NCBI GenBank assembly: GCA_964641225.1
Contig: CAZXKC010000004.1
Span: 29,026 to 93,025, forward strand
DNA: 64,000 nucleotides
Direction of reading: 5' to 3'
DNA from: an uncultured Candidatus Saccharibacteria bacterium
GTDB lineage: Bacteria; Patescibacteriota; Minisyncoccia; UBA6257; 1-14-0-10-44-23
This document shows, one piece after another, positions 3,208 through 60,383 of this stretch (position 1 is the stretch's first letter; every line of letters begins with the position of its first letter). Below the pieces are notes generated by a model. It was not told the origin of the DNA, did no database searches, and saw only the letters and a list, made by a program, of their open reading frames with translations. The translations under genes and the position numbers were made by a program.

Positions 3208-3301
3208 AGATTTGAATTCAAAGAGTATACAGTAATTTAAGAAATTACGCAAGAGGTCTATTACATATACATAAGAAGATTACAGCCTGTATAATGAACA
3301 G

Positions 3302-4441
3302 ATGAAAATCGCGATCGATATTCGCCTGCTTGCACAAGGAGGTACAACGGGTATTCCGGGCTACACGAAAGAGCTTATTGATTCACTGCTCCGTTTTCAC
3401 CCTGAACACGAGTACATTCTTTTTTATAATGCATTTACTAAGCAGCCACTTCCGCCGCAGTGGCGGCGTGCATACAACGTTACTATTGTAGAAAAAACTA
3501 TCCCAAATAGACTCCTTAACGCCTCTTTCAGGCTTTTTAATCGCCCGCACTTTGCAATATTTTCCGAGGCTGACGTTATCTTCAGTCCCCACTTTAATCT
3601 GCTCCCACGAACAAAAACTCCGCGCGTTATCACCTTTCACGATCTCTCGTTTCTACACTATCCTCAGTTTTTCTCAATGCAGCAAAAAATATGGCACTGG
3701 ATGCAGGAGTCAAAACAACAGGCGCAGAATGCCGCACGCCTTATTGCAGTTTCACAGACAACAAAAGACGATCTAATGCATTTTTATACTATTCCTGAAA
3801 AAAATATCAGTATTATATACTCCGGCATCGGAAGCGAATTTAAAAAACTAGCAACAGACAATCAAGATCTTAAACTCTTCAAGCGCAGACGATCACTCGA
3901 GAAGCCGTACATTCTCTATTTAGGCACACTTGAGTCTCGCAAAAATTTGCCGCTTATAATTCGCGGCTTTTCGCAGCTGATTACTCGCCCAGGATACAGC
4001 CAGTATCAATTACTGCTTGCTGGGCGACCTGGCTTTGGATATGACCAGATCAAAAAAGAAATTGCCTGTTCGGCTATTCCGGCAGCGATCAGAGAATTGG
4101 GACCGGTAGCAGACGAAGAGCGGGTATACTTATATAATGCGGCACGCGCATGCGTCTTCCCCTCATTTTTTGAAGGATTTGGATTTCCTCCCCTCGAGGC
4201 GCAGGCATGCCAGACGCCCGTAATCTCATCGAACCGAACCTCGCTTCATGAAATACTGAGCGATTCAGTAGTTACGGTTAATCCCTGGAAACCCGCAGAG
4301 CTGACAGAGGCAATTATCCGTCTGGAATCTGACGCGAGCTTTCGAAACAAGATCATTACGAGCGGAATTAAAAATGCACAGCGATTCACGTGGAAGCAAG
4401 CCGCACAGCAGCTGATGGATGCATTCAAATGTGTTTCTTAA
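3302..4441 (+). CDS. Glycosyltransferase family 1 (GT4)
   Basis: C-terminal GT4 signature: GTLESRKNL...FPSFFEGFGFPPLEAQACQTPVISS. Confidence 0.75.
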   Translation: MKIAIDIRLLAQGGTTGIPGYTKELIDSLLRFHPEHEYILFYNAFTKQPLPPQWRRAYNVTIVEKTIPNRLLNASFRLFNRPHFAIFSEADVIFSPHFNLLPRTKTPRVITFHDLSFLHYPQFFSMQQKIWHWMQESKQQAQNAARLIAVSQTTKDDLMHFYTIPEKNISIIYSGIGSEFKKLATDNQDLKLFKRRRSLEKPYILYLGTLESRKNLPLIIRGFSQLITRPGYSQYQLLLAGRPGFGYDQIKKEIACSAIPAAIRELGPVADEERVYLYNAARACVFPSFFEGFGFPPLEAQACQTPVISSNRTSLHEILSDSVVTVNPWKPAELTEAIIRLESDASFRNKIITSGIKNAQRFTWKQAAQQLMDAFKCVS

Positions 4442-4447
4442 AAAATA

Positions 4448-6436
4448 ATGGAAGAGGTAGAAGAGATATTACAGATTAGACGCAGAACGGCTCCGCGCCA
4501 GAAGATAGCGAAGCCTAGTAACGCAGCGCGCTGGATCACGCTCGGCATCATTGGCGCACTTATATGTGGCTCGCTCGGTTTTTATGGATGGCGACTTCTT
4601 ACACTAAAAGATTTTGCTGCGCAATCTAAAGAACAAATTATTGCTCAGCTTGCCGAGGCACGCGCCTCCTTGCAATCTCTTAACCCTGCGGGTGCTGCTC
4701 AGCCGCTTGCCGACATTCAAACTGAACTTGCGACACTACAAACCGAGGCCGGGAAATACGGCGTACTTACCCTTGCAGGCTGGTGGGGCAATGTACAAGA
4801 AAAATTTCAAGCACTACCAGGTATTTTGCAAGACCTTACCGGTATTTCCGGGACAGCAATTCATATTAATGAAGACCTTGCATATCTTAAAGAACATACG
4901 CTCAGCCTGATGCTGGGTGGAAAAGGAGAGGAATTACTTGAGCGGCTTGCCAGCCTGCAAGACAAGCTCGCCCGGCTGACTATATACGTTGAACATATTC
5001 GCTCTCAAGCACCACTTGATGCGGCAACACAAAAAACTCTCTCTGGGTTTAATGTTGAGCTCACCGAAGCCACTCAGTCACTAGGCGCCCTTCGGACACT
5101 GCTAAGCCCGCAGAAAGAACGCCACGTATTAGTCATGTTTCAGAATGAAAGCGAATTGCGTCCTGGCGGCGGCTTTTTAGGAAGCTATGCCGATGTCACT
5201 ATTGCGCACGGCGCTGTTACCAACATTGAAGTGCGCGACATTTACGATCCGGACGGACAGTTATTTACAAACGTTATCCCGCCGCGACCGCTGCAGCGCC
5301 TGACTAAAGATTGGGAGGCGCGCGACGCAAACTGGTTTGCAGACTTCCCTGCCTCTGCTCAAAAAGTGCTGAGCTTCATGAATCAATCGCGTATCTATAC
5401 CGACAGACAAGTCACCTTTGAAGGCGCAGCCGCTATCAACACACACGTTATTGGCGACATTATTGATTTAGTTGGACCTATTGAGCTGCCTGAATTTAAA
5501 CTGACTATTACCGGTGACACATTTATGCGCGAGCTGCAAAAAGAAGTAGAGGCCGGTGAAAATAAAAAAATTAATCAGCCAAAGAAAATACTACAGACAC
5601 TTGCACCTATTCTTTTAGAACGCCTTAAAACCCGGACTAGATCACAAGATGCGGCATTTTTAGAAAAAATCCGTTACAACTTTACGCGCAAAAATATCAT
5701 GCTGTATGTAGACGATCCAATTCTCGAGCATCAATTTACAACCCGCGATGTTGGCGGAAACCTTACGCATCTTGAAAAAACAAATTCCGCAACAATCAGC
5801 GACTATCTGGCAGTAATTACCGCAAACATGGCTGGCGGCAAAAGCGACTTTGTAACCCGGCAGTCTATCAAGCTCGTAAGTACATTTACCGCAACTGGTA
5901 CGCTCGTTAATCAACTCACGATAACTCGTCAGAATAAAGGCAACACAGAAACAGAGTGGTGGTATAAATCACCACATAAAACATATACCCAGATATATAT
6001 GCCACTTGGTTCAAAAATATACTCAGCGCAGGGCAACAAAGCCTGGCCAGATCCTATTGTAAGAGATTATAGCAAGTACCAGGAAGATCCTGATGTTGCC
6101 GCGATTGAAGCTACACACCTGTTTCTTGACACTGAACAACTGGATCGTTTTATCGCTTTCAATAAAACTGTTTTTGCCGGCTGGATAACAACTCCGACAG
6201 GAGCCACATCAACATTTACGATGAACTACAGAAATCCGAAAAAATTTACCCCTGCTGTAAAAAACTACGAATTCTATTTTGACAAACAATCCGGCGCCAA
6301 CACATCATTAGAAGTTTCTATTATTGCACCACCTGGTTTTATCTGGCAGGAAACTTCAAGTACGACGCTCAGCTTTGCAGATGAAGACCCGCCGGGAAAG
6401 ATAAAGATTGCAGGAACGCTTGTACGGCAACCGTAG
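4448..6436 (+). CDS. Membrane-anchored DUF4012-like protein
   Basis: N-terminal TM helix, coiled-coil, and the motif LVMFQNESELRPGGGFLGSYADVT typical of DUF4012 proteins found next to glycosyltransferases. Family assignment is from memory only. Confidence 0.35.
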   Translation: MEEVEEILQIRRRTAPRQKIAKPSNAARWITLGIIGALICGSLGFYGWRLLTLKDFAAQSKEQIIAQLAEARASLQSLNPAGAAQPLADIQTELATLQTEAGKYGVLTLAGWWGNVQEKFQALPGILQDLTGISGTAIHINEDLAYLKEHTLSLMLGGKGEELLERLASLQDKLARLTIYVEHIRSQAPLDAATQKTLSGFNVELTEATQSLGALRTLLSPQKERHVLVMFQNESELRPGGGFLGSYADVTIAHGAVTNIEVRDIYDPDGQLFTNVIPPRPLQRLTKDWEARDANWFADFPASAQKVLSFMNQSRIYTDRQVTFEGAAAINTHVIGDIIDLVGPIELPEFKLTITGDTFMRELQKEVEAGENKKINQPKKILQTLAPILLERLKTRTRSQDAAFLEKIRYNFTRKNIMLYVDDPILEHQFTTRDVGGNLTHLEKTNSATISDYLAVITANMAGGKSDFVTRQSIKLVSTFTATGTLVNQLTITRQNKGNTETEWWYKSPHKTYTQIYMPLGSKIYSAQGNKAWPDPIVRDYSKYQEDPDVAAIEATHLFLDTEQLDRFIAFNKTVFAGWITTPTGATSTFTMNYRNPKKFTPAVKNYEFYFDKQSGANTSLEVSIIAPPGFIWQETSSTTLSFADEDPPGKIKIAGTLVRQP

Positions 6437-21112: not shown

Positions 21113-21197
21113 GGAGGGGTGGCAGAGTGGTCTAATGCACCGCACTTGAAATGCGGCGTGCCGCAAGGCACCGTGAGTTCGAATCTCACCTCCTCCG
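21113..21197 (+). tRNA. tRNA-Ser (anticodon TGA), class II
   Basis: Acceptor GGAGGGG/CTCCTCC, anticodon loop CTTGAAA, long variable arm, T-loop GTTCGAATC. Confidence 0.75.
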
Positions 21198-22790
21198 CAA
21201 GTTGAGATTCTTGTCATACCGAGCCTCCAAAGACCCCGTTCCGACGCGGGTTCTTGGAGGTTCGAATGAAGACTTGGTCTCTGGAACAGCAGCCGTGTAT
21301 TTTCTGATAAGAAACGCCGTGTTGCCGTTATCCCACTTCACTTTTTTGTCTAAGAGGCGGAGGTTCGAATCCTGCCCGAGGGCAGCGACAAATTCCCGTC
21401 GTTTTTCTGGCGTAGCCTTATCCCAGCGTTTAGCGACCTCAGTAGCGAAGACAAATCCTTCTTCGGCTTTATTAACCCAGTTCACCACCTCTGCGTTAAC
21501 CTCGTTAGCAACTTGATTAAGCCTAGCCTGGTCTTTAAGAAGCTCCTTTTTACGCTCCGCAAACTGCTTAGCATCAATCTCCTCATCAGCACGCATATCA
21601 ATGAGACGTTTGAGCCTCTGAGCACAGGCATCGTCGGCCCTACGCTGGGCGGTCAAGATTGCTTCCCGCTCACGGAATTGGTTCTCGTTTTCCTTTCTTA
21701 GTTTTGCCAAAGCCCAATCCCGGAAACGCGGAGAGATATCCATACCCTCAACAACCTCCTCGATCTGTTTTTCTAGAGCCTTCTCTTCCACGAGAGGCTG
21801 CGCACAGCGAGGTTTCAGCTGTTTAGTACAGTGATAATAGATATAGGTATGGACATTGCCGTTTTTCTGTCGTTTTATACGTTCCTCGGCAGTTATAGCT
21901 GCGCCACACGCCCCGCACCGAAGTATGCCGACATATTTAAACCAGCGTCGTTCCTGGGGCCGAGGCATACCTTTGCGGCCCAACAATTTTTGGACGCGAT
22001 CAAACTCTTCGAGGGTAACCATTGGCTTGTGATTTCCTTTATATAGCTTCCTGTTTTCTTCATTTCCATATTCAAACCACCCGTAGTAGAAGGGATTGTT
22101 AAAGAGATGGTAAATAGCTGCCCGAGAGATTGGATTACCACCACCGTTTCTTCGTAGAGGTGTTCGTAGGCCCCAATCCTTCGTAGCGATGTCGAGTACC
22201 TGCGGAGCGGTATAAGCACCAGTCAGCATGAGGTCCCATGCCTTGCGAACTAACGGGAAGATTTCCTCATCAACGAGAATCGTATTTGAACCCTTATCGC
22301 GCAGCCTGCTATTTTTATAGCCGATCGGAGCTGGCCCAGGACGCCAACCCATTCCGACCTTAGTATTCTGTCCGCGTTTTACGTTGGTGCTGAGGTCATC
22401 TACATATTTCTTGGCAATACCGAAGTCCAAGCTCATCATGAACTTGTCATCACCGTTGTTTCGGAAAACTTTCTCAGGTGTACGGATTTCCGTAATGAGG
22501 CCGCGATCCATAAACCAAGAAATTTTTCCACCATCCAACGCATTGCGTGCCAAACGGTCGAGCTTCCAAACTAGAAGTGCGCAACTTTTTTCTTTTTCGA
22601 GATAAGTGAGCATCTCTTCAAAGTGCGGGCGGCCCGGAGACTTGGCCGACTTGCTCTCCTTGAAGGTTGCACAAATCGTGAGCTTCTCGCGCCGCGCATA
22701 ACTCTTAAGTACCTCCTCTTGGGAATCTATCGAGAGAGCCTGCTTATCGTCTGATTCGGAACTTTTGCGGCAGTAGACAACGTACTTCAT
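21186..22790 (-). CDS. Large serine recombinase (integrase)
   Basis: N-terminal resolvase domain with catalytic Ser (YCRKSSESDD), a recombinase domain, a Cys4 zinc ribbon (CGACG...CTKQLKPRC) and a coiled-coil. The ORF 3' end overlaps the tRNA-Ser 3' end, so the true stop may lie earlier. Confidence 0.8.
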   Translation of the reverse strand: MKYVVYCRKSSESDDKQALSIDSQEEVLKSYARREKLTICATFKESKSAKSPGRPHFEEMLTYLEKEKSCALLVWKLDRLARNALDGGKISWFMDRGLITEIRTPEKVFRNNGDDKFMMSLDFGIAKKYVDDLSTNVKRGQNTKVGMGWRPGPAPIGYKNSRLRDKGSNTILVDEEIFPLVRKAWDLMLTGAYTAPQVLDIATKDWGLRTPLRRNGGGNPISRAAIYHLFNNPFYYGWFEYGNEENRKLYKGNHKPMVTLEEFDRVQKLLGRKGMPRPQERRWFKYVGILRCGACGAAITAEERIKRQKNGNVHTYIYYHCTKQLKPRCAQPLVEEKALEKQIEEVVEGMDISPRFRDWALAKLRKENENQFREREAILTAQRRADDACAQRLKRLIDMRADEEIDAKQFAERKKELLKDQARLNQVANEVNAEVVNWVNKAEEGFVFATEVAKRWDKATPEKRREFVAALGQDSNLRLLDKKVKWDNGNTAFLIRKYTAAVPETKSSFEPPRTRVGTGSLEARYDKNLNLRRR

Positions 22791-51333: not shown

Positions 51334-52803
51334 CTACGCTTCTTTTGACACATCAACCCGCGTCTTAAGTTTAACGACTGTTTTGCCGTCGGCTCCTTTG
51401 GCTAAAAGCCATCCACGGCCGTCAGCGGTCTTAAAGGTATATGACGATCCCTCCTGTGTATAGGTCAGATACTTTCTCTGCTCAAGAATTTTTAAAAGTA
51501 TCGGCTTTAGCAGTACATCCGTGTTGCTATCTTGAAGGGTATCAAATAAAATCCTGTTTTTTGTCTGCTCAAAACGTGCAATATCTATTTTAGGATATTT
51601 TTGTTCGGCTAAAAGAGCCAGCTCCTCAAACGAAGGTAGTTCTTCCCCATGAATAAATTCATCAAGCGTGGTATTAAATTCAGCGGCGGCCAGGTAGTCT
51701 GGTGAACCCTCGAGCGGCTTAGTCGTTTCTTCTACGGGCGCAGAAGGCGCGACGGGCGCTATAACGATCTCCTCGTCTACAACAGCCGACCCGCTGGCGT
51801 CCTCAAAGACACGCGGAGCTGGAGCCTCAGCGGCAACTTGAGCTGGTTCAGGGGTCGCAGAAAACTCTTTCGGCGTTTCCGTAGCAGGAGCAACAATGGC
51901 AGGTTGCGCAACTTCCTGTACTGCAGGAACATCCGCAAGGATATTGGCGCTCGTATGAGCAGGAGCGGCCTGTCTATCAAACGAAGACTGTACCGGAATC
52001 GACTCTTTTCGAATAATGGGCGTCTCAACTCCATTTCGCGCAGCGGGCGAAGTAGCGGGTTTTTGAACTGGTTGAACCTCTGGCTTCTTCGCGCCATTTT
52101 TACCAATACCAAACAAACGTTTCCAAAAAGAAGGCTTTGCCGAGGCAGCAGGTTTTTCTTGCCCATTACGAGTATTTGGTGCGGGTGCAACAATTTTTTC
52201 TGCCTGAATTTGCTCCCATGTTTTGCCGGCAACATCCGGCCGTAATCGATAGAGCGGCCCTTCTTTTTTCCCAACAGGCGCCTCAACCAACACCGCCAGT
52301 CCATCGGCGAGCAGCTTCGCAAGAACTCGGTCTGCCTGCTGCGCAGTCATACCTTGATTACTCATCTGAATCGTACGAGGCGATATTTCAGGGCCGAGTC
52401 CGGAAATATACGTATTCCAAAAATCACTCCAAAAAACAGGCTTTTCAAGATTGCCGGCAAAATCAGTGAGTTTCTCTGCCCGACTCTGCCCATTCAATTT
52501 CGCTTCGGACTCACTGAGAAATTTTCCTAATTGTGCCGGGCTTTCAATGGCTTTTTCGTCGACAGAAGACCTCTTCCTGAGCAGGCCATACAGCCCCAAC
52601 TGCTCTTTTCGTAACTTAGCAAGCTTTTTGTCTAACGTAAGGTATTGTGCATTATGACTTACACCGCCGCCCTGCTTTGTGCGAGTCTGGAGTATAAGCA
52701 TCTGCTCTTCAAGTCCGGAGGCTTCGTTTTCAATCTCTTCAATACGCTTTTTTACCTGATCAAGACTTTTCTCAGGAGCAAAAACTTTTTCAAATCCAAG
52801 CAT
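51334..52803 (-). CDS. Hypothetical protein with an N-terminal coiled-coil and a Pro/Ala-rich linker
   Basis: ORF only. Internal overlapping ORFs are in alternative frames. Confidence 0.4.
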   Translation of the reverse strand: MLGFEKVFAPEKSLDQVKKRIEEIENEASGLEEQMLILQTRTKQGGGVSHNAQYLTLDKKLAKLRKEQLGLYGLLRKRSSVDEKAIESPAQLGKFLSESEAKLNGQSRAEKLTDFAGNLEKPVFWSDFWNTYISGLGPEISPRTIQMSNQGMTAQQADRVLAKLLADGLAVLVEAPVGKKEGPLYRLRPDVAGKTWEQIQAEKIVAPAPNTRNGQEKPAASAKPSFWKRLFGIGKNGAKKPEVQPVQKPATSPAARNGVETPIIRKESIPVQSSFDRQAAPAHTSANILADVPAVQEVAQPAIVAPATETPKEFSATPEPAQVAAEAPAPRVFEDASGSAVVDEEIVIAPVAPSAPVEETTKPLEGSPDYLAAAEFNTTLDEFIHGEELPSFEELALLAEQKYPKIDIARFEQTKNRILFDTLQDSNTDVLLKPILLKILEQRKYLTYTQEGSSYTFKTADGRGWLLAKGADGKTVVKLKTRVDVSKEA

Positions 52804-52835
52804 AGTATAAAAATTTGAAATTAATAAATCACGTG

Positions 52836-52906
52836 TGGACCTGAGGAGAATCGAACTCCTACCTCCTCCATGCCATGGAGATGTAATACCATTTTACTAC
52901 AGGCCC
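52836..52906 (-). tRNA. tRNA-Ala (anticodon GGC)
   Basis: Acceptor GGGCCTG with a G3-U70 pair (the Ala identity element), anticodon loop ATGGCAT, T-loop GTTCGATTC. Confidence 0.7.
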
Positions 52907-53061
52907 TGATGAGCGAAGTGATACTGGGCGAACTACACGTATCGGCGGAGCCGATACTAATAGTAGCAAGATTGCCCAGGTTCGCCAGTACTCTGGCGAC
53001 AATCTTACGTACAGGCCCAGCGACGAGCGTATCGCTATTGTACGATAAAACACTGTTCATT

Positions 53062-53595
53062 TCAAGACGCCGCCTTCGCACGCTTGGCTTCTTCATAGGC
53101 TTTCATAATTGTATCGCGCGCATACTCAGGATAGCGTATCCCGTAAATAACCATTTCGCGCATCTCGCCGGCGGTTTGAATATGAATATTTCCGAATTTG
53201 AAAAAAGTTGCAAAGATTCCAAGCACCTCGATTTTTACGTCTTCTATTTTCTCAAGCGGTGAAGAGGCAATATCGCGGGCAAACAAACTCACCTGATCAA
53301 CGTCAATGAGTCGTTCATTGGTAATAACCAAAATATCCAGATAATGCCCGGTCAACATTACAAAAAACGCAATCAGCATCAGGAGCATCCATGCGGCTAC
53401 GAGAAAAATTGTCAAAGACTGAAATTGATCGCCACCGATAGCAGCAGCCGTAGAGCCAAAGATGCTCTTATAAAATGGCAGCAATATAAGTGGTACCACG
53501 GCGGCAATAATCAAACCTGAGGTCTGCATCAAAAATATAAACCAGTGTTTACGCATGCCCACAATCACCTTTTCGCCAGGTAAAAAATGTATCAT
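53062..53595 (-). CDS. Membrane-anchored bacterial PH-domain protein (YdbS/YdbT-like)
   Basis: Two TM helices and a C-terminal bPH-like domain. Confidence 0.5.
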   Translation of the reverse strand: MIHFLPGEKVIVGMRKHWFIFLMQTSGLIIAAVVPLILLPFYKSIFGSTAAAIGGDQFQSLTIFLVAAWMLLMLIAFFVMLTGHYLDILVITNERLIDVDQVSLFARDIASSPLEKIEDVKIEVLGIFATFFKFGNIHIQTAGEMREMVIYGIRYPEYARDTIMKAYEEAKRAKAAS

Positions 53596-53822
53596 AGAGA
53601 TATAAGGGCAAGATACATTACGCCTAAGAGTACAATCACGCCTACTACAAAAGACACTCGAAACTCCAAAAGCTTTATCAGGCCGATACCATACGTCCGC
53701 CAGTGATAATCAAGAATGCCTCCGGCAACAACGCAAAGCACGACCGTTAACCAAAACAGGTATGGGGCGGCTTTAACCAAAATACCCGTAAAAGAAATTG
53801 ACGAAATATCTGGAAATGGCAT
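53592..53822 (-). CDS. Small two-TM membrane protein
   Basis: Hydrophobic ORF overlapping the next gene by 4 nt. Confidence 0.3.
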   Translation of the reverse strand: MPFPDISSISFTGILVKAAPYLFWLTVVLCVVAGGILDYHWRTYGIGLIKLLEFRVSFVVGVIVLLGVMYLALISL

Positions 53823-53829
53823 GTAGTTA

Positions 53830-54867
53830 TTAACGCAGCGCTAATTTTTTACGTTTACGGGCGGCAATCAATCCGTCGAGGCTCCAATTGCCTCCGTCGT
53901 TTATGACCAGATAGAGCGCGAGCGCGAGCAAAATATAATGCGGCCAGACGGCTTCTTTGAAAAAGATCACCGAGAGTAAATACAAGAAAAAGGTCATAAA
54001 GGAGGCAAGTCGTGTCTCAAAGCCCAAAATAATACATAACCCAACAAGCACCTGCGCGGCTCCTGTGCCGAGCGAAATTAAGAGCGGATCCGAGGGGAAT
54101 AGCCAGTTGATGTGGTTGAGACCATATTTCTCAACGATTTCGAGTATGATTATTGGGTGCAAAAACTTAATCGTAATTGCCGGAAATAATACTGAAACAC
54201 CATAGGTAATTCTGATAATCGGCAACTCCCACTCCTTCCATTTTTTTATAAACGTGTTCGCTTTAGTCCGCACTCCATCGAGTGAGAAAATCATTGAACC
54301 AAACAGTAGCAATGCGAGAAATTCACCAACATAGTTAACGTAGGTGAGCATATAGTCCTTATACACCACCGTCATCAATAGCATATATATAAGACCAACT
54401 GCTCCGGCAATTCGTGTGTAGATACCGAAAAGAATCATAATGCCTAACGCATACAACGCAGGCCGAAGCATGATTCCGCCCGGCAGCGATGAAAGTGGAA
54501 TCTCGGGGCCCAAAAACACATTAAAATGTGCAGAGGCAAGGCAAGAAACAGCAAGCGCAATGCGGAGCGCAACATGGCCAACCGGCTCAAGACGCTTTAA
54601 CTTTACATCGAAGATAAGACCGATTTTTGAGGATAGAAAAAAGTAATAGACAATAAAAAGCGCAGCGATACTTAGACCTACACACAGAGCGATAAACACG
54701 TTATGCGGGTCTTTGAGCGCATCAAAGACATTAATACTCCAATCCTGCATTCCCCGCTCGATAGACTCAGCCGGAAGCACATAATTTTCGTGGGCGCGCG
54801 CAAGTACAGGCACCATGCTTAACAGCAACGTTGTGGATACAAAAAAAATCTTCTGAATCGCTCGCAT
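53830..54867 (-). CDS. Polytopic membrane protein (DoxX/HTTM-like; uncertain)
   Basis: About eight predicted TM helices. Confidence 0.4.
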   Translation of the reverse strand: MRAIQKIFFVSTTLLLSMVPVLARAHENYVLPAESIERGMQDWSINVFDALKDPHNVFIALCVGLSIAALFIVYYFFLSSKIGLIFDVKLKRLEPVGHVALRIALAVSCLASAHFNVFLGPEIPLSSLPGGIMLRPALYALGIMILFGIYTRIAGAVGLIYMLLMTVVYKDYMLTYVNYVGEFLALLLFGSMIFSLDGVRTKANTFIKKWKEWELPIIRITYGVSVLFPAITIKFLHPIIILEIVEKYGLNHINWLFPSDPLLISLGTGAAQVLVGLCIILGFETRLASFMTFFLYLLSVIFFKEAVWPHYILLALALYLVINDGGNWSLDGLIAARKRKKLALR

Positions 54868-55202
54868 ATGATTACTATTTAGGATACCACACCGTGCTAC
54901 TGAGCATGCTCAGTAGCAAAAATTCCGTACATCAAAATTCTCGCGGTGAGCGGGATATTTTGACCTGCGGAAGCGGGTTTTTGTTAGCAAACAAAAACGG
55001 GCGGCTCCAGAAAAATACTCGCTTCAAAGCCGCCCAGGAATGATTCGAAAGAATCCTGCTCTTTGCGAATATTAAAATACCTCGGGTCAGTAGGTATTTT
55101 AATGTGCGGTGTGTCCCGGTCTAGAACCAGGAGCTTTCAATAAACGCAAAAAGCCCAGATGGAATTTAGGGTGTCTCGGTCCTCGATAAAAAATGTTGAC
55201 TG

Positions 55203-55290
55203 CGGTGGGGGTGGGATTCGAACCCACGGGCCTCTTTCGAGGCAGACGGTTTTCGAGACCGACCCGTTATGACCACTTCGGTACCCCACC
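55203..55290 (-). tRNA. tRNA-Ser (anticodon CGA), class II
   Basis: Acceptor GGTGGGG/CCCCACC, anticodon loop CTCGAAA, long variable arm, T-loop GGTTCGAATCC. Confidence 0.65.
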
Positions 55291-56274
55291 GGGAATAAAA
55301 CTTTTATATCGTGCAAGATGCTTCTGATTACTGCTCTTAATTTCAGCAAAATATCTCTCAATCTCTTTCTGTTTACGCAAGTAAACAGAATTTTGCTTAA
55401 CAGTGTTGGTTGGCGAAAATCCGAGGTGGACGAGCAGTTGTACGATATCTTTTCTTAGACTATCTGCATTGCTCGTAATTGTCCAGCCGAGATGATAATA
55501 CTCTTTACTCTTAATTCGGTGACGATCTACATAAATACAGCCATCAGTATCGAATAAGCCCCTTATAAATGCGCGCTGATACTTTATTTCTGAATTAATC
55601 CATCCAGGAATGATCAATCGCCCTTTCATTTTATTACCGGCAACTCCTCCATGCTCCATTAGAAATGATGCCAATGCGCGCGATGAAAACACAACTTCAA
55701 CTGCTAACTGCTCTTTTTTCTTACGAATCCTTGACGATAAACCAAATAATTCTTTAGCAATTCTTTGAACGTACAGAGCATGTTCATAGTCCGTTTCGGA
55801 ATTAGTTGTCACGCTTACCTGATACCTATCAATGTGGCCATCGCCGAATACAATACCAAAAAATTCTGCCAATTTCTCAGAATACTGTGGTTGGCGAATC
55901 TTTTTCAATTGTTTAAAGCCATTACGCGATCCTTTTTGTTCACGTGCCGATATTAATCCGCCTCGTCGACGACCTTCTGGCGTACCAAAATTACCATATA
56001 AATTAATACGCGCTCGACCACCTTTTGATGCGGCTTTCTTAATATGCCAAAAATCTTTTAGATATTGAGGGCTCAGTATTGTTTCAATAATCCCCGCAAG
56101 ATTAACCATCTTTTTAAAAACACTTGATGGTATCGAATTTTTTCCACCCCTCCAATCAGTAATCGTTCTCACGGAAACGTTAAAATATTGAGCAAGAAAT
56201 TTTGAACTATGCCCCTGAGATGATAAAGCGGCAAATAGCAAAGCTGTATTCGCGCGCGTGATCTTAACTCTCAT
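55267..56274 (-). CDS. Free-standing LAGLIDADG-family homing-endonuclease-like protein
   Basis: Two LAGLIDADG motifs (LAEFFGIVFGDGHI and FIRGLFDTDGCIYV) with an N-terminal HTH. The C-terminal 24 nt overlap the 5' end of tRNA-Ser(CGA). Confidence 0.55.
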   Translation of the reverse strand: MRVKITRANTALLFAALSSQGHSSKFLAQYFNVSVRTITDWRGGKNSIPSSVFKKMVNLAGIIETILSPQYLKDFWHIKKAASKGGRARINLYGNFGTPEGRRRGGLISAREQKGSRNGFKQLKKIRQPQYSEKLAEFFGIVFGDGHIDRYQVSVTTNSETDYEHALYVQRIAKELFGLSSRIRKKKEQLAVEVVFSSRALASFLMEHGGVAGNKMKGRLIIPGWINSEIKYQRAFIRGLFDTDGCIYVDRHRIKSKEYYHLGWTITSNADSLRKDIVQLLVHLGFSPTNTVKQNSVYLRKQKEIERYFAEIKSSNQKHLARYKSFIPGGVPKWS

Positions 56275-56387
56275 AATTTAATAGTATCATAATTTCGAGT
56301 TATTAATATAGTAACTAGTCTAGCAAGCTTCTCAAATCGCAAATCAAAAAACACCCCGTTTGAGGTGTTTTTTGAAAGATACGAATC

Positions 56388-56660
56388 TTATTTACCCATG
56401 TTGGCCATTCCGAAATCCTTCGAAACAACCTTCCAGCACTCGTGCGGACCGGCGTTTGACTTGGTTACTGCGAAGTAACGGCCGTTCTTCTCCTCAATTC
56501 TCCACTCCGCTGACTTAAACTTTGCCTTCGACTTTACATCATAAAACTCCATCTCTTCTTTTGCCATACTAAAATTAGTTAGGTTAGTGGCCACGGTCGA
56601 CATCGCAGCCGTTGTTAAGGAAAAGTATACCCTACGGCAAGCTTTTTGCCAAATTGACAA
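56388..56660 (-). CDS. Small hypothetical protein
   Basis: ORF only. The start may be the internal MAKEE. Confidence 0.3.
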   Translation of the reverse strand: MSIWQKACRRVYFSLTTAAMSTVATNLTNFSMAKEEMEFYDVKSKAKFKSAEWRIEEKNGRYFAVTKSNAGPHECWKVVSKDFGMANMGK

Positions 56661-56701
56661 TGAGCTCCCTTAAATGATGTAATTACTGCACAGCAAAAGC
56701 C

Positions 56702-56840
56702 GCCCCTGTAGTTCAATGGATGGCGGCCCCTCGGCTCTTATTATAAAATAGGAGCGCCGAGGTACCAGGGCCTTGTCGCTCAAGGTTGCGGCCACCGCCG
56801 CATTCGTAACCGCCTCCACTTTGTTTCGGCTCGCGATAGA
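56702..56840 (+). repeat. Copy C of the roughly 140-nt tRNA-associated structured element, 5' of tRNA-Arg
   Basis: Same core as copies A and B. Preceded by GCCCCTGTAGTTCAATGGAT, which resembles the 5' 20 nt of the downstream tRNA-Arg. Confidence 0.45.
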
Positions 56841-56858
56841 GCAGCTCCGTCCTCAAAC

Positions 56859-56931
56859 ACCCTCGTAGTTCAATGGATTAGAACAATCCCGTCCTAAGGG
56901 ATTGATGTAGGTTCGATTCCTACCGAGGGTA
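56859..56931 (+). tRNA. tRNA-Arg (anticodon CCT)
   Basis: Acceptor ACCCTCG/CGAGGGT, anticodon loop GTCCTAA, T-loop GGTTCGATTCC. Confidence 0.7.
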
Positions 56932-57023
56932 CACCTGTCAATATTGCATTTCTTGCTAGCGGTGCTACCGTTTATTTGTGTTGGCCATGGTGGCCAGCGC
57001 AGGACCCAAGGAGGATGTCTCAC

Positions 57024-57722
57024 ATGGAAACGCATCTGCGAATCCACGAGGCCTTCTGCCTCGTGTCCTCGCTACTCTCGCTGGTTCTCGAACCAGCCGT
57101 GAAAGAAGGCTGCGGCATCACGATCTGGCACGGTCGCCCGATCTACGACCCACACCTACAGAAACCCCTCAACGAAACGACCGAACTGCTGATGGACCTG
57201 CTGGCGGAAGAGGCGCTCAAGGAAGGGCTGCCCTCTACCCCGGAAGACGCTATCGCAGCAGTGGTGACCTACGACCGCGGTGGCATCCGCCGCACTCTGG
57301 CGGAGACGCTGGCCCGGAAAATCGGGGGTCTCCAGAGGTTCCCCTGCGAACCGTTCATCGTCGCTCACAATAAGGGGGCCGGTGGTGTCCGTGGACGGCT
57401 CGTCCTGGACCGGGAAGGACTGCGGGATCTTCGGAGGCGAAAAGCGAAGGTCTACTTCCTCACCGATCTTCTGGAAACCGAGAGTTACCTGATCCGCATG
57501 GCCAAGACCGCCCGGCAGCCGCGCCATGGTCTCCGCATCGTTCGGTTCAGTGCCGTAGTCAAACGTGATCGAGGCATCCGCAGAGTCATCCTAGATCGCG
57601 TCGGAGAAGAACTCCCTCTCGTGTACTTCCTGGACTGCCAACTGGACCCTCGACAGTCCGCCGAGGACGGCGACGCAGTGCAACACGAGATCGACAGGGC
57701 ATTCGAACCTGCAACCCTGTAG
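57024..57722 (+). CDS. Hypothetical protein in a high-GC (about 62%) patch
   Basis: AAGGAGG RBS before the METHLRIHE start. No recognisable domain. Nucleotidyltransferase- or Abi-like is speculation only. Confidence 0.35.
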   Translation: METHLRIHEAFCLVSSLLSLVLEPAVKEGCGITIWHGRPIYDPHLQKPLNETTELLMDLLAEEALKEGLPSTPEDAIAAVVTYDRGGIRRTLAETLARKIGGLQRFPCEPFIVAHNKGAGGVRGRLVLDREGLRDLRRRKAKVYFLTDLLETESYLIRMAKTARQPRHGLRIVRFSAVVKRDRGIRRVILDRVGEELPLVYFLDCQLDPRQSAEDGDAVQHEIDRAFEPATL

Positions 57723-57782
57723 CCCCAACAACGCTAAGAGAGCCGGCTTCGTGAAGAACGACCGGCTCTCTCCCTTTTAAGA

Positions 57783-58169
57783 TTACTTTTTCTTTTCTAG
57801 CTCCAAGCAAACCGAATTGATACAATAGCGCTTCCCTGTCGTTGCCTTTGGGCCATCGTCAAACACGTGGCCTAAATGAGAATTACAATTGGCGCAGAGC
57901 ACCTCGGTTCGCTCCATCCCATATTTTGAGTCGTGTTCGTATTTAACGGCTCCGGGAAGCGCCTGATCAAAACTTGGCCAACCAGTACCAGAATCAAACT
58001 TTGCATCTGAGGCAAAGAGCTTGTTGCCGCAGACAACGCAGGCAAACATTCCCTCTTCATGGGACGTGGCATATTTGCCACTGAAAGGCACCTCCGTTCC
58101 CTTTTCGCGCAATACCTTGTATTGCTCAGGGGTCAACTTCTTTTTCAGCTCCTCCTCGTTAATCTGCAT
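57783..58169 (-). CDS. msrB: Peptide-methionine (R)-S-oxide reductase
   Basis: Two CxxC pairs and GTGWPSF...HLGHVFDDGP. Confidence 0.85.
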   Translation of the reverse strand: MQINEEELKKKLTPEQYKVLREKGTEVPFSGKYATSHEEGMFACVVCGNKLFASDAKFDSGTGWPSFDQALPGAVKYEHDSKYGMERTEVLCANCNSHLGHVFDDGPKATTGKRYCINSVCLELEKKK

Positions 58170-58174
58170 ATATA

Positions 58175-58567
58175 TTAGACCGTCTTATGCATATCGTGCG
58201 GATGATGCGTATGCGAACCAGTCGTGATTACTAAATAACCGGGCACGAGCCAACCAATAAATGGGAGAGCAACAAGTGCACCGAGCCACCAGGGCTTACC
58301 AAACTTTTTACCGATTTCCGACCAGATGTATCCGGCCACAAAAAAGTTGACGTATGGGATAAACAAGCCAAGCAGCCACCACCACGGTAAGGCGGCCATT
58401 TGCGTAGCCAGATACAAATTAGCAAACGGGATCCATGCAAACCAGGGATTCTTTGCGCCCAATCGGCGCGCGAGCACCATTGTGGTATAGGCCAGATAGA
58501 TATATACGACGATGCCACCTATTGCCTGCTCAACTCCGAAACCGCTTGAAGGAAAAAATGTGTTCAT
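58175..58567 (-). CDS. Small polytopic membrane protein
   Basis: Trp-rich TM helices. Confidence 0.4.
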   Translation of the reverse strand: MNTFFPSSGFGVEQAIGGIVVYIYLAYTTMVLARRLGAKNPWFAWIPFANLYLATQMAALPWWWLLGLFIPYVNFFVAGYIWSEIGKKFGKPWWLGALVALPFIGWLVPGYLVITTGSHTHHPHDMHKTV

Positions 58568-58598
58568 ACGTTAGTTATAGACTTAAGTATATAATTTT

Positions 58599-60383
58599 TT
58601 ACGCAGAAGCAAAACCTCCAGCCTGAATGTTCCACAACTTTTGATACGTTCCTTGCTGAGCCTTAAGTAACTCCTCGTGTTTGCCCTCTTCAATTATTTT
58701 ACCATCAGCAATCACTACGATTCGATCCATTTGCATGATTGTTGAAAGACGATGAGCTACAACAATCGTTGTCCGGCCCTTCATCAAATTCTTAAGCGCG
58801 TCCTGAATAAACATCTCACTCTCGCTATCAAGCGACGAGGTCGCCTCGTCAAGAATTAAAATCGGTGCATCTTTTAAAATTGCCCGAGCAATTGCAACGC
58901 GCTGACGCTCACCCCCGGAAAGCTTAATGCCTCGCTCACCCACAAGGGTCTGATATCCGTGTTGAGACTTACTAATAAATTCGTGTGCATGTGCCAATCG
59001 CGCTGCTTCAACAACCTCTTGATCGGTGGCATCGGGTTTAGCGTAGCGAATATTTTCAGCAAGCGTACGATGGAATAAAATCGGGTCTTGCGGCACGAGT
59101 GAAAGCGCCGAGCGCACAGAATCCTGGGTTGCCTTTGAAATGTCCTGCCCGTCGATCGCGATCGTACCGCTGTTAACATCATAGAATCGGAGCAGCAACT
59201 TTAGAATTGTTGACTTACCGCCACCCGACGGACCAATGAGGGCAACGCGCTCGCCGGGGTTAATGCTCAGGTTAAATTTTTCAAGCACCGCTGAGCCGTC
59301 ATGGTATCCGAATGAAATATCTTTGAACTCAACTTTGCCTTTCACGCTCCCCAAAGTTACGGCGCCCGGAACGTCTTTAATGTCATGAGGCTTCAGAAGA
59401 AGCTCGGTCATCTCGTTGGCGTCGGCCAACGATTCATAGAGCGCGCGGATGTTTTTGCCTGTATCCCACAATTTTTCGATAATTCTAAATAAATAGACCT
59501 GCAAAAGAGTCACGCCTCCGATGCTAATCAGTCCTTGCTGCCACTGCTTCACAGAAAGGTATACGACAAAAAACTCCAAAGCGACTACCAAAAGACCCTG
59601 GACAAATTCGCCGATGACACCAATATCCCAACTTTTTTTCCGAACTCGAAATTGTTTTTCAGTAACCCCTGCAAAACGTCCATTTTCAGTAGCATAGCTT
59701 GTGAACACCTTAAGATTTACGTTATTAGTAATACCATCAGCAAGTTCTCCAGTTGTATGCGTATCCGCATGCGCACGTCGAATATCATAAGGCATTTTAA
59801 AACGCGCAAAATAATAAACGAAAACTAAATATACAGCACACCATCCAAGGATAATAAAACCAAACAGCGGATATTGTGCCAGCAAAACAACTAAAATCAT
59901 TGCCGTGATAACGAATGTGCGTCCTAAACTGAAAAATAGCTGGTTCACAAAAACTTCAAAAGCACGCTCAACTCGTTTTACTTTTGTAACTAAACTTCCA
60001 ATAAATTTTGATGTAAAAAACCCGTAAGAATGCTGTTGTAGATACTGATAGCAGGTGTTTGTCAGCTCGCTCATTACCTTTGGCAAAAAATAATTATTTG
60101 TTAAATCGGCAACGCGCCAAAAAACAACCTCTATAAGATTAATTCCTAAGATAAGTAAAATGAGATGGACGGCAGGCGCAATATCAGCCTGCGCTGTTCC
60201 GCTTGCCAGCACATCAACTAAATTACGATAGAGAGTAGCGACTCCTGTTTGTACAGCAGTTACTATGAGAACACTTCCGAAAATCAAAAAGACCTGCCAG
60301 CGGTATTTCCGCGCATGCTGCCAAAAAATTTTGAGCGTCTGTCGTGTAAGCGATTGCATGGAACTAAAATATAAACATATCAA
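58599..60383 (-). CDS. ABC exporter, fused permease and ATPase (MsbA-like)
   Basis: Six-TM domain followed by Walker A GPSGGGKST, LSGGERQRVAIARA and ILILDEATS. Confidence 0.85.
   Translation of the reverse strand: MICLYFSSMQSLTRQTLKIFWQHARKYRWQVFLIFGSVLIVTAVQTGVATLYRNLVDVLASGTAQADIAPAVHLILLILGINLIEVVFWRVADLTNNYFLPKVMSELTNTCYQYLQQHSYGFFTSKFIGSLVTKVKRVERAFEVFVNQLFFSLGRTFVITAMILVVLLAQYPLFGFIILGWCAVYLVFVYYFARFKMPYDIRRAHADTHTTGELADGITNNVNLKVFTSYATENGRFAGVTEKQFRVRKKSWDIGVIGEFVQGLLVVALEFFVVYLSVKQWQQGLISIGGVTLLQVYLFRIIEKLWDTGKNIRALYESLADANEMTELLLKPHDIKDVPGAVTLGSVKGKVEFKDISFGYHDGSAVLEKFNLSINPGERVALIGPSGGGKSTILKLLLRFYDVNSGTIAIDGQDISKATQDSVRSALSLVPQDPILFHRTLAENIRYAKPDATDQEVVEAARLAHAHEFISKSQHGYQTLVGERGIKLSGGERQRVAIARAILKDAPILILDEATSSLDSESEMFIQDALKNLMKGRTTIVVAHRLSTIMQMDRIVVIADGKIIEEGKHEELLKAQQGTYQKLWNIQAGGFASA

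Follow-up and report, generated by a model that had tools for sequence, protein, structure and literature searches.

The 64,000-nucleotide (nt) window analysed here, from a contig of an uncultured Candidatus Saccharibacteria bacterium, one of the candidate phyla radiation (CPR), carries on its minus strand a free-standing gene for a LAGLIDADG endonuclease whose 3' end runs into a tRNA-Ser(CGA) gene. We propose, at a probability of about 0.7, that the two form a mobile homing-endonuclease and tRNA cassette that invades resident tRNA-Ser(CGA) genes of CPR bacteria, the biochemical steps being deduced. Read along the minus strand, the locus consists of a decayed 5' half of a tRNA (remnant A), a -10-like box, the endonuclease open reading frame (ORF), the complete tRNA-Ser(CGA) and a second, decayed tRNA piece (relic B). 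The initial annotation of this stretch, made from the sequence without database searches, had not seen that the gene is lodged in the ruins of one tRNA gene and has a replacement tRNA behind it. That annotation had nevertheless raised, as one of two alternatives, a mobile endonuclease at a tRNA locus, and the tie to tRNA-Ser, the flanking tRNA relics, a syntenic relative that lacks the gene, and a tRNA that follows the gene all speak for it.

The endonuclease, its tRNA and their family

The ORF (55267..56274, minus strand) begins with ATG and encodes 335 amino acids (aa) in the long form of the family, that is, a helix-turn-helix (HTH)-like N-terminal domain, a basic linker and a double LAGLIDADG core. 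Pfam LAGLIDADG_3 matches the protein in two stretches (E 4.8e-17, 62.4 bits against a cut-off of 22.5), so that the double-motif protein of the initial annotation is confirmed by profile, and the objection it had itself foreseen, namely motifs failing a hidden Markov model search, does not arise. Motif 1 (LAEFFGIVFGDGHI, 55834..55869, minus strand) lies on helix 133-145 and includes GIVFGDGHI (residues 140-148) with the catalytic D145; motif 2 (FIRGLFDTDGC, 55537..55569, minus strand) lies on helix 230-244, with GLFDTDGCIYV at residues 239-249 and the catalytic D244. Across an alignment of 34 sequences at about 50% identity, G144, D145, G146 and H147 of the former and F236, R238, G239, F241, D242, T243, D244 and G245 of the latter are invariant. 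An AlphaFold2 model built from 34 homologues has a mean predicted local distance difference test (pLDDT) score of 87.8, exceeding 90 across residues 130-320, and its core consists of two alpha-beta-beta-alpha-beta-beta-alpha domains with the order of helices and strands expected for the DNA-binding saddle. Foldseek against the PDB places I-Tsp061I first (2dch, E 1.3e-12), followed by the VMA intein endonucleases and I-DmoI, with a probability of 1.00 for I-Tsp061I, I-DmoI, I-AniI and PI-PfuI; WhiA is also among the matches (E about 5e-7). The protein therefore has, as far as sequence and model tell, the fold and the catalytic residues of active LAGLIDADG nucleases, and activity is predicted. 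Its ORF has a guanine-plus-cytosine (GC) content of 0.37-0.41 against 0.47 for the window.

The N-terminal HTH claimed in the initial annotation fares less evenly. A helical domain is confidently modelled there (pLDDT 92-95 over residues 1-70, helices 7-19, 24-30, 35-43 and 50-60), and its W41 is invariant in the same alignment; the sequence matches that would make it an HTH (HTH_11, HTH_23 and HTH_3, E 0.007-0.07) are weak and fall below the Pfam cut-offs, and we accordingly speak of an HTH-like domain (residues ~13-59, 56098..56238, minus strand). Between it and the core lies a basic, Gly/Arg-rich segment (residues ~76-110, 55945..56049, minus strand; FWHIK.AA.KGG.AR..LYGNFGTPEGRRKGGL.S) in which W76, A81, G85, G94, G97, T98, E100, G101, R102, G105, G106 and S109 are invariant or nearly so. 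It is modelled as two helices at a pLDDT of about 70 and is matched by no Pfam family; its role would be to contact nucleic acid.

The tRNA-Ser(CGA) is complete, with neither an intron nor an encoded CCA (ARAGORN, 55202..55290, minus strand). Rfam scores 55203..55290 at 52.4 bits against a gathering score of 29 over the full model (positions 1-71), the sole insertion relative to that model being the long variable arm. An overlap of 24 nt between the 3' end of the ORF and the same-strand tRNA had been noted before, and this is exact: nucleotides 55267..55290 are tRNA positions 1-24 and, in phase 0 with tRNA position 1, the last seven codons and the stop of the ORF (GGT GGG GTA CCG AAG TGG TCA TAA, giving G-G-V-P-K-W-S-stop), the TAA falling in the D-loop. 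The tRNA may be part of a transcript begun at the endonuclease promoter, from which RNase P would free it; at loci like that of the window, this would take the stop codon off the mRNA. Alternatively, a -10-like TATAAA provided by the conserved R-Y-K/N codons, among the last of the ORF, may drive the tRNA. By way of comparison, the tRNA-Ser(TGA) of the window (21113..21198) has an ordinary GGCAGAGTGGTC-type D-arm, unlike the tRNA-Ser(CGA) linked to the endonuclease.

Scanning 185,579 genomes, each representing one species, turned up 27 CPR loci, and in every one of them the gene lies directly 5' of a same-strand tRNA-Ser (26 CGA, 1 TGA). When L209, the locus with the closest endonuclease (55% aa identity), is added, the count is 28 of 28 CPR loci examined as DNA (27 CGA, 1 TGA). 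Because the same juxtaposition is found in all scanned loci and in L209, the arrangement of the gene and tRNA-Ser is far beyond chance; nor does the gene occur at many unrelated loci, as would befit the ordinary gene family against which the initial annotation had cautioned, since it is tied to tRNA-Ser in all loci examined. In the CPR loci the ORF mostly ends between -3 and +25 nt from tRNA position 1, making use of an in-frame D-loop stop where there is one and otherwise stopping directly before the tRNA.

The proteins tell the same story. A protein search returned 267 relatives, the top matches being nearly all of ~334 aa, 45-56% identical and, where named, from Patescibacteria; at 50% identity the family comprises 664 clusters (E <= 1e-30). 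Most aligned sequences terminate in G-[GER]-V-P-K-[WR]-S, and in two independent searches the translated 5' end of tRNA-Ser formed the C-terminus of 136 of 268 family proteins (G.VPK[WR]S in 74, G.V[AG] in 35 and close variants in 27). A few further proteins cross the tRNA in another frame (..YRSGHNG.VSKT..). At the window locus, a spurious 74-aa ORF (55137..55361, minus strand) likewise crosses the tRNA in a different frame (..GYRSGHNGSVSKT..), and the family proteins P0042, P0244 and P0248 carry tails like it, which means that gene callers run such ORFs through the tRNA in more than one frame. A short form of the family dispenses with the HTH-like domain and begins at the conserved basic segment, as in L022 (3985..4060), where an apparent GTG start lies 6 nt after TATAAT and the protein begins with ..HLRKAGHLGGLAMMKKYGNPGT... 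The close relatives are sporadic (~27 among the 185,579 species genomes), and the copies in L008, L016 and L028 (3 of 28) are disrupted or truncated. No relative was found in phage and plasmid collections, and the matches in IMG/VR were all distant and covered LAGLIDADG regions only in part; nothing thus hints at a virus or plasmid as vector. A scan for the D-arm pattern of the window tRNA returned 120 metagenome and 4 viral loci with the gene in none of the 124, most of them being high in GC and outside the CPR and having, therefore, little bearing on occupancy within it.

More distant relatives (L029-L081, n = 53, mostly from DPANN archaea, with L039 from Saccharibacteria) also keep company with predicted tRNAs, which lie within 350 nt of the ORF ends in 37 of 53 when tRNA introns are allowed (about 22 of 53 in a plain run). 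These tRNAs are Gly, Tyr, Gln, Ala, Arg, Phe, Leu, Trp and others, and stand either on the same strand 3' of the ORF or convergent with it. A 5' tRNA-like relic precedes the ORF in L039 (tRNA-Tyr, GCACCCGTGTATAAC..) and in L059, L060 and L071 (..AGTTCAA[CT]GGA[TC]AGAA..), and L071 is flanked by tRNA-Arg(TCG) on either side. In the archaeal relatives, apparent repeats of tRNA parts on the two sides of the gene were considered as well and rejected, most of them being neighbouring paralogous tRNA-Gly genes.

tRNA-like pieces beside the gene and loci without it

Remnant A (56293..56333, minus strand), recognised by its colinear alignment with tRNA-Ser genes, is what is left of the 5' half of an older, displaced tRNA-Ser(CGA). 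Though decayed, it retains the acceptor strand, the D-arm and the anticodon-loop heptamer CTCGAAA (56299..56293) and breaks off where the anticodon loop ends on its 3' side (tRNA position 38/39). It matches the 5' half of the tRNA-Ser(CGA) of L206, a relative without the gene, at 27 of 44 positions (z 4.6, 0 of 2000 shuffles), and does not significantly match the functional tRNA of the window itself (z 1.2). Remnant A argues for insertion into a tRNA-Ser(CGA) gene; that the enzyme would recognise and cleave such a gene, we infer.

Relatives repeat this arrangement. Many loci have, in the 60-70 nt that precede the start codon, a 5' half of tRNA-Ser(CGA) that is colinear and decayed to a varying degree, running from the acceptor strand through the D-arm (..GCCAGAGTGGTTGA..) and CTCGAAA or a near copy of it to a -10-like box (TATGATA, TATAAT or TAGAAT), with the start codon 6-8 nt farther on and no Shine-Dalgarno sequence. 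The remnants are still legible in L003 (GGAGAGGTGCCAGAGTGGT) and L009 (GGAGAGGTGGCATAGT) and barely recognisable in others. With a position weight matrix of tRNA-Ser positions 1-16, 12 of 28 loci score above the 95th percentile of control windows (binomial p 3.5e-9), and in eight long-form loci the best match has a fixed place, -53 to -55 relative to the start. Six of 29 loci have an exact CTCGAAA no farther than 75 nt from the start (p 5.6e-6). When each upstream region was aligned locally with the tRNA of its own locus, only about 5 of 28 loci reached significance; the remnants belong to a different tRNA-Ser type and are decayed. At E < 0.01, L003 was the sole locus matched by an nhmmer profile built from 5' halves of tRNA-Ser, and a profile of the upstream region gave only weak matches against independent loci, 6 of 36 falling in register on tRNA-Ser genes.

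In the window, the -10-like box (TGATACTAT, 56281..56289, minus strand) follows directly upon the anticodon-loop relic and precedes the ATG by 6 nt, and the start looks leaderless, having no Shine-Dalgarno sequence. The box, read by eye, would be a promoter element, and in several relatives a D-loop relic (GGTTGACT) lies 17 nt from the corresponding box in a -35-like placement; a consensus promoter scan picks another site, TTGAGA-16-TACTAT at 56335..56308, inside remnant A. A terminator-like hairpin with a T-run (56345..56373, minus strand), placed after the upstream small ORF and likewise picked out by reading, probably marks the upstream limit of the cassette; a simple scan missed it, and equivalent hairpins stand before remnant A in L209 and before the tRNA unit in L206.

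On the other side, some 92 nt separate the functional tRNA from the start of homology to the 3' flank of the L206 tRNA, and they contain relic B (55105..55160, minus strand), which alignment suggests to be a decayed 3' part of tRNA-Ser with a variable arm, a T-arm-like CCTGGTTCTAGACCGGG and an acceptor-like ACACACC-G-CA. It matches the 3' half of the functional tRNA at 31 of 57 positions (z 3.5, 0 of 2000 shuffles) and the L206-type tRNA not significantly (z 0.8); we regard the assignment as tentative. Farther out, a perfect 12-nt copy of the 3' acceptor end of the L206-type tRNA-Ser (CCCGCTTCCGCA, 54966..54977, minus strand) is ascribed to an older duplication shared with L206. There, the last 12 nt of tRNA-Ser(CGA) together with 13 nt of flank are repeated (5622..5646 and 5760..5785, ~140 nt apart), the copies bracketing a hairpin-bearing segment, as if an older insertion at the 3' end of the tRNA had left a scar, and the window retains the distal copy. 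In L022 a perfect 16-nt relic of the tRNA 3' end lies 107 nt downstream of the tRNA.

A comparison of related genomes for presence and absence of the gene, proposed in the initial annotation, gives two cases, L206 against the window and L154 against L011. L206 (a 267-kb contig) is the closest syntenic relative, its DoxX-family neighbour being 75% identical at the aa level. It runs from an ABC transporter through DUF5684, MsrB, a 229-aa gene, tRNA-Arg(CCT), a small gene and tRNA-Ser(CGA) to DoxX, a 76-aa gene, a 177-aa gene and tRNA-Ala(GGC), in the same gene order as the window, and no endonuclease gene was found at this locus. Its tRNA-Ser(CGA) is of a different sequence type from that of the window, and the 3' flank of the window tRNA unit (54949..55109) matches the L206 3' flank (5617..5777) in inverted orientation, at 69% over 163 nt (blastn). 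L209, from a more distant genome, shares with the window the layout of small gene, terminator, remnant, endonuclease gene and tRNA with a 24-nt overlap. Loci of the window type and of the L206 type are present in samples SRR14271336 and SRR14271332. Between window and L206, tRNA identity is 100% for tRNA-Ala(GGC), 92% for tRNA-Arg(CCT), 90% for tRNA-Trp(CCA) and only 67% for tRNA-Ser(CGA); between window and L209 it is 73% for tRNA-Arg(CCT), 75% for tRNA-Trp(CCA) and 96% for tRNA-Ser(CGA), tRNA-Ala(GGC) not having been compared. This contrast means that the tRNA beside the endonuclease follows the gene rather than the host and is foreign to the host lineage.

The second case pairs L011, which has the gene, with L154, which does not; they share the tRNA-Glu side as well as the tRNA-Ser and 260 nt downstream at 81-84% nucleotide identity, and the downstream homology begins exactly at tRNA position 1. 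Among the 11 loci with an upstream tRNA-Glu(TTC), tRNA-Ser identity correlates with that of tRNA-Glu at rho -0.20 and with that of the endonuclease at rho 0.30, which is suggestive of tRNA-Ser weakly tracking the endonuclease and not tRNA-Glu, the pairs not being independent. Other relatives of the DoxX neighbour (P0129, P0133, P0135 and P0140) yielded no further syntenic locus. Beside its endonuclease locus, L011 shows another partial tRNA duplication, an 80-nt direct repeat that takes in the 5' portion of tRNA-Glu(TTC) along with the flank upstream of it (3261..3340 and 3437..3516, ~96 nt apart).

A possible mechanism and competing explanations

In the mechanism that we favor, the enzyme would cut an endonuclease-free tRNA-Ser(CGA) gene near its anticodon arm, and cutting around this arm would explain the isoacceptor specificity. 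The break would then be repaired from a cassette-bearing copy, with the tRNA-like sequences on both sides serving as homology arms, and the repair would copy in the endonuclease gene and all or part of the replacement tRNA-Ser(CGA). The host would keep a working tRNA and the old copy, once split, would decay. A crossover within the 5' half would fit the remnants in L003 and L009, in which the distal parts are pristine and the proximal parts decayed. The old D-loop and anticodon region, now overlapping the endonuclease promoter, may even serve as an operator for autorepression. Autorepression via an operator is described for I-TevI. The HTH-like domain, for its part, may add recognition of a particular D-arm type.

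Several observations weigh against this proposal. The rebuilt tRNA has an intact anticodon arm, which leaves self-immunity unexplained. No pair of loci differing by the cassette alone, that is, no clean empty site, was found, and the endonucleases that stand beside 96%-identical tRNAs share only 55% of their residues, so that no recent transfer is documented. In the short-form clade the tRNAs are diverse, and the tRNA is thus not always carried along. Only about half of the loci have remnants that stand out statistically, and 3' relics occur in only 2 of 25 testable loci, L022 being the clear one from the downstream search. In the window, remnant A resembles the L206 type and relic B the functional type, so they do not look like two halves of one gene; moreover, comparison of the window with L206 shows the tRNA-Ser unit and 160 nt of its 3' flank turned round with respect to the neighbouring genes, which simple homing by homologous repair would not yield. 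The mismatch of types and the inversion together point to more than one event.

A first competing reading is a domesticated, vertically inherited WhiA-like protein in which LAGLIDADG and HTH parts regulate or assist expression of the adjacent tRNA-Ser(CGA), the upstream tRNA-like sequence being its promoter or operator. An HTH-like domain is indeed fused to the LAGLIDADG core and WhiA is among the structural matches; proteins from different CPR classes, at ~50% identity, keep strictly to one length and layout, the upstream element keeps a fixed distance and overlaps promoter-like boxes, and no near-identical copies were found in different hosts. We nonetheless consider this unlikely, as both catalytic aspartates and their surrounding motifs are invariant, the distribution is very sporadic, with the closest syntenic relative lacking the gene and some copies disrupted, and the linked tRNA is incongruent with the host markers while relatives are attached to many different tRNAs. 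It is equally improbable that a free-standing endonuclease once landed in a tandem tRNA-Ser duplication, or merely beside a tRNA, with the tRNA no target, any real target lying elsewhere, and the fragments ordinary duplication debris. Such an accident would account for relic B resembling the functional tRNA, as a tandem duplication predicts, and partial tRNA duplications unrelated to the gene do exist (the 25-nt repeat in L206 and the 80-nt repeat at the L011 tRNA-Glu). Yet divergent hosts and tRNA sequence types show, again and again, a junction behind the anticodon loop and a fusion to tRNA position 1, a foreign tRNA allele travels with the gene, and relatives at the isoacceptor tRNA-Ser(TGA) and, distantly, at other tRNAs imply repeated tRNA-directed insertion.

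The break of remnant A beside the classical tRNA intron position in the anticodon loop, and the LAGLIDADG-encoding insertions known in CPR rRNA genes (PMC8172020, PMC11809585), might invite the reading that remnant A is a true 5' exon and the endonuclease ORF lies in an intervening sequence that is removed, as in an unrecognised intron or a split tRNA. On the sequence, this is already contradicted and its probability is very small: the downstream tRNA is complete on its own, the acceptor strand of remnant A (GAGAAGC) is decayed and would be unable to pair with the tRNA 3' end, the remnants of the relatives run from intact to unrecognisable, and no intron family is matched in Rfam. The initial annotation, which saw no surrounding intron or intein, had all the same kept an unrecognised intron as its other alternative and suggested tRNA and intron searches as the check. 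ARAGORN and a permissive Rfam scan of 52000..59000 gave the complete tRNA and no intron family (only three tRNAs and chance-level matches), with the tRNA-Ser(CGA) uninterrupted and colinear with the Rfam model. This alternative thus falls, and an intron-encoded endonuclease is rejected with it. An intein-borne enzyme is rejected too. Nearly all relatives share a conserved start of their own, Met-Arg-Val, and the ORF has its own upstream region; a Pfam scan showed no intein splicing blocks, yielding LAGLIDADG, Hom_end and weak HTH families alone, and the NCBIfam matches to intein-containing proteins are confined to the endonuclease core (query residues 120-319).

The cassette proposal could be taken a step further. 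It is conceivable, though we would not wager on it at even odds, that a LAGLIDADG superfamily in CPR bacteria and DPANN archaea acts as a natural "cleave-and-rescue" gene drive, each member destroying one resident tRNA gene and installing a cleavage-resistant replacement fused to its ORF. If so, the tRNAs targeted would include Ser, Gly, Tyr, Gln, Arg, Ala, Phe and others, tRNA processing would do for the cassettes what splicing does for introns and inteins, the endonuclease gene would have the relic of the former tRNA for its promoter and operator, and the cassettes would shuffle tRNA alleles horizontally in the CPR and DPANN lineages.

Relation to known systems and neighbouring features

The nearest parallel to the proposed cassette is found in the mobile ORFs (mORFs) of fungal mitochondria (Allomyces macrogynus atp6; Glomus atp6, atp9, cox2 and nad3), inserts that bring a foreign copy of a gene end and displace the native end (PMC3630166). 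As in these, a free-standing LAGLIDADG ORF (mORFs may also be of the GIY-YIG type) lies in a gene without an intron and is accompanied by a foreign, divergent copy that takes over the function; the native part is left as a displaced relic, the ORF can run in frame with the gene sequence, and the foreign piece is phylogenetically incongruent with the host. The present case differs in that it concerns a tRNA gene on a bacterial chromosome, with the ORF 5' of the replacement and the 5' half as the displaced upstream piece, and in that the part supplied appears to be an entire tRNA, not just the end of a gene, and the family is large, old and tied to one tRNA identity. The combination that defines mORFs, an endonuclease with a foreign gene part and a displaced native relic, is found here as well; the principle is the same, not the descent.

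The free-standing endonucleases of T-even phages practise "intronless homing", in which a nearby endonuclease-free allele is cut and flanking markers are co-converted, the allele beside the endonuclease gene being a resistant variant; one of them, SegB, acts in the T4 tRNA gene cluster. The gene described here resembles them in standing free beside conserved genes and, in the case of SegB, in its tRNA gene region. They differ in being GIY-YIG or HNH enzymes of phage genomes that neither split a tRNA gene nor are fused to one. WhiA, for its part, has its HTH at the C-terminus, has lost the catalytic residues and is near-universal in Gram-positive bacteria. A LAGLIDADG scaffold joined to an HTH is what it has in common with the present family, in which the HTH-like domain is N-terminal, the catalytic residues are invariant and the distribution is sporadic. 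With I-Tsp061I and I-DmoI, enzymes of archaeal rRNA introns, and with the VMA intein domains, the closest structures and profiles, the protein shares a monomeric double-motif core, at only ~18-22% identity; the extra HTH-like domain and basic linker, and the freedom from any intron or intein, set it apart.

CPR rRNA genes carry LAGLIDADG-encoding insertions (PMC8172020, PMC11809585). Like these and the group I introns of bacterial tRNA anticodon loops (see also PMC3984707), the cassette would target a structural RNA gene, and remnant A breaks at the anticodon loop; unlike them, it has no ribozyme and no interrupted gene, and a replacement tRNA stands in place of splicing. In the literature we found CPR LAGLIDADG genes reported only in rRNA insertions and nothing on tRNA-linked ones, so the family-wide arrangement with tRNA-Ser(CGA) is apparently undescribed.

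Homing endonucleases are thought to persist by hiding in introns and inteins, which keep the host gene working. The element described here seems to bring its own copy of a small RNA gene, a third route to harmless persistence. If the cassette proposal is true, it would extend the gene-replacement principle of mORFs to bacterial chromosomes and tRNA genes, and would account for the unusual tRNA-Ser(CGA) alleles and the pieces of tRNA that CPR genomes contain. It also bears on annotation, where ORFs run into tRNAs and tRNA pseudogenes occur. The family offers, in addition, a compact and naturally diversified set of LAGLIDADG proteins with an extra DNA-binding domain and with targets (tRNA genes) that can be guessed, and, since it is tied to a single tRNA identity, the hypothesis about its target lends itself to direct testing in vitro.

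As for the surroundings, the window holds twelve tRNA genes in its 64 kb. The upstream small ORF (56388..56660, minus strand) has no Pfam match and is not the DUF5679 zinc-ribbon protein that L206, L207 and L209 have at the same position. Between tRNA-Arg(CCT) and msrB lies an ORF of 248 aa (56976..57722, plus strand), also without a Pfam match, in a GC island (~57050..57650, 0.60-0.63 against the window mean of 0.47); its position is taken by the 229-aa gene in L206 and by a 253-aa gene in L209, to which it is 27% identical.

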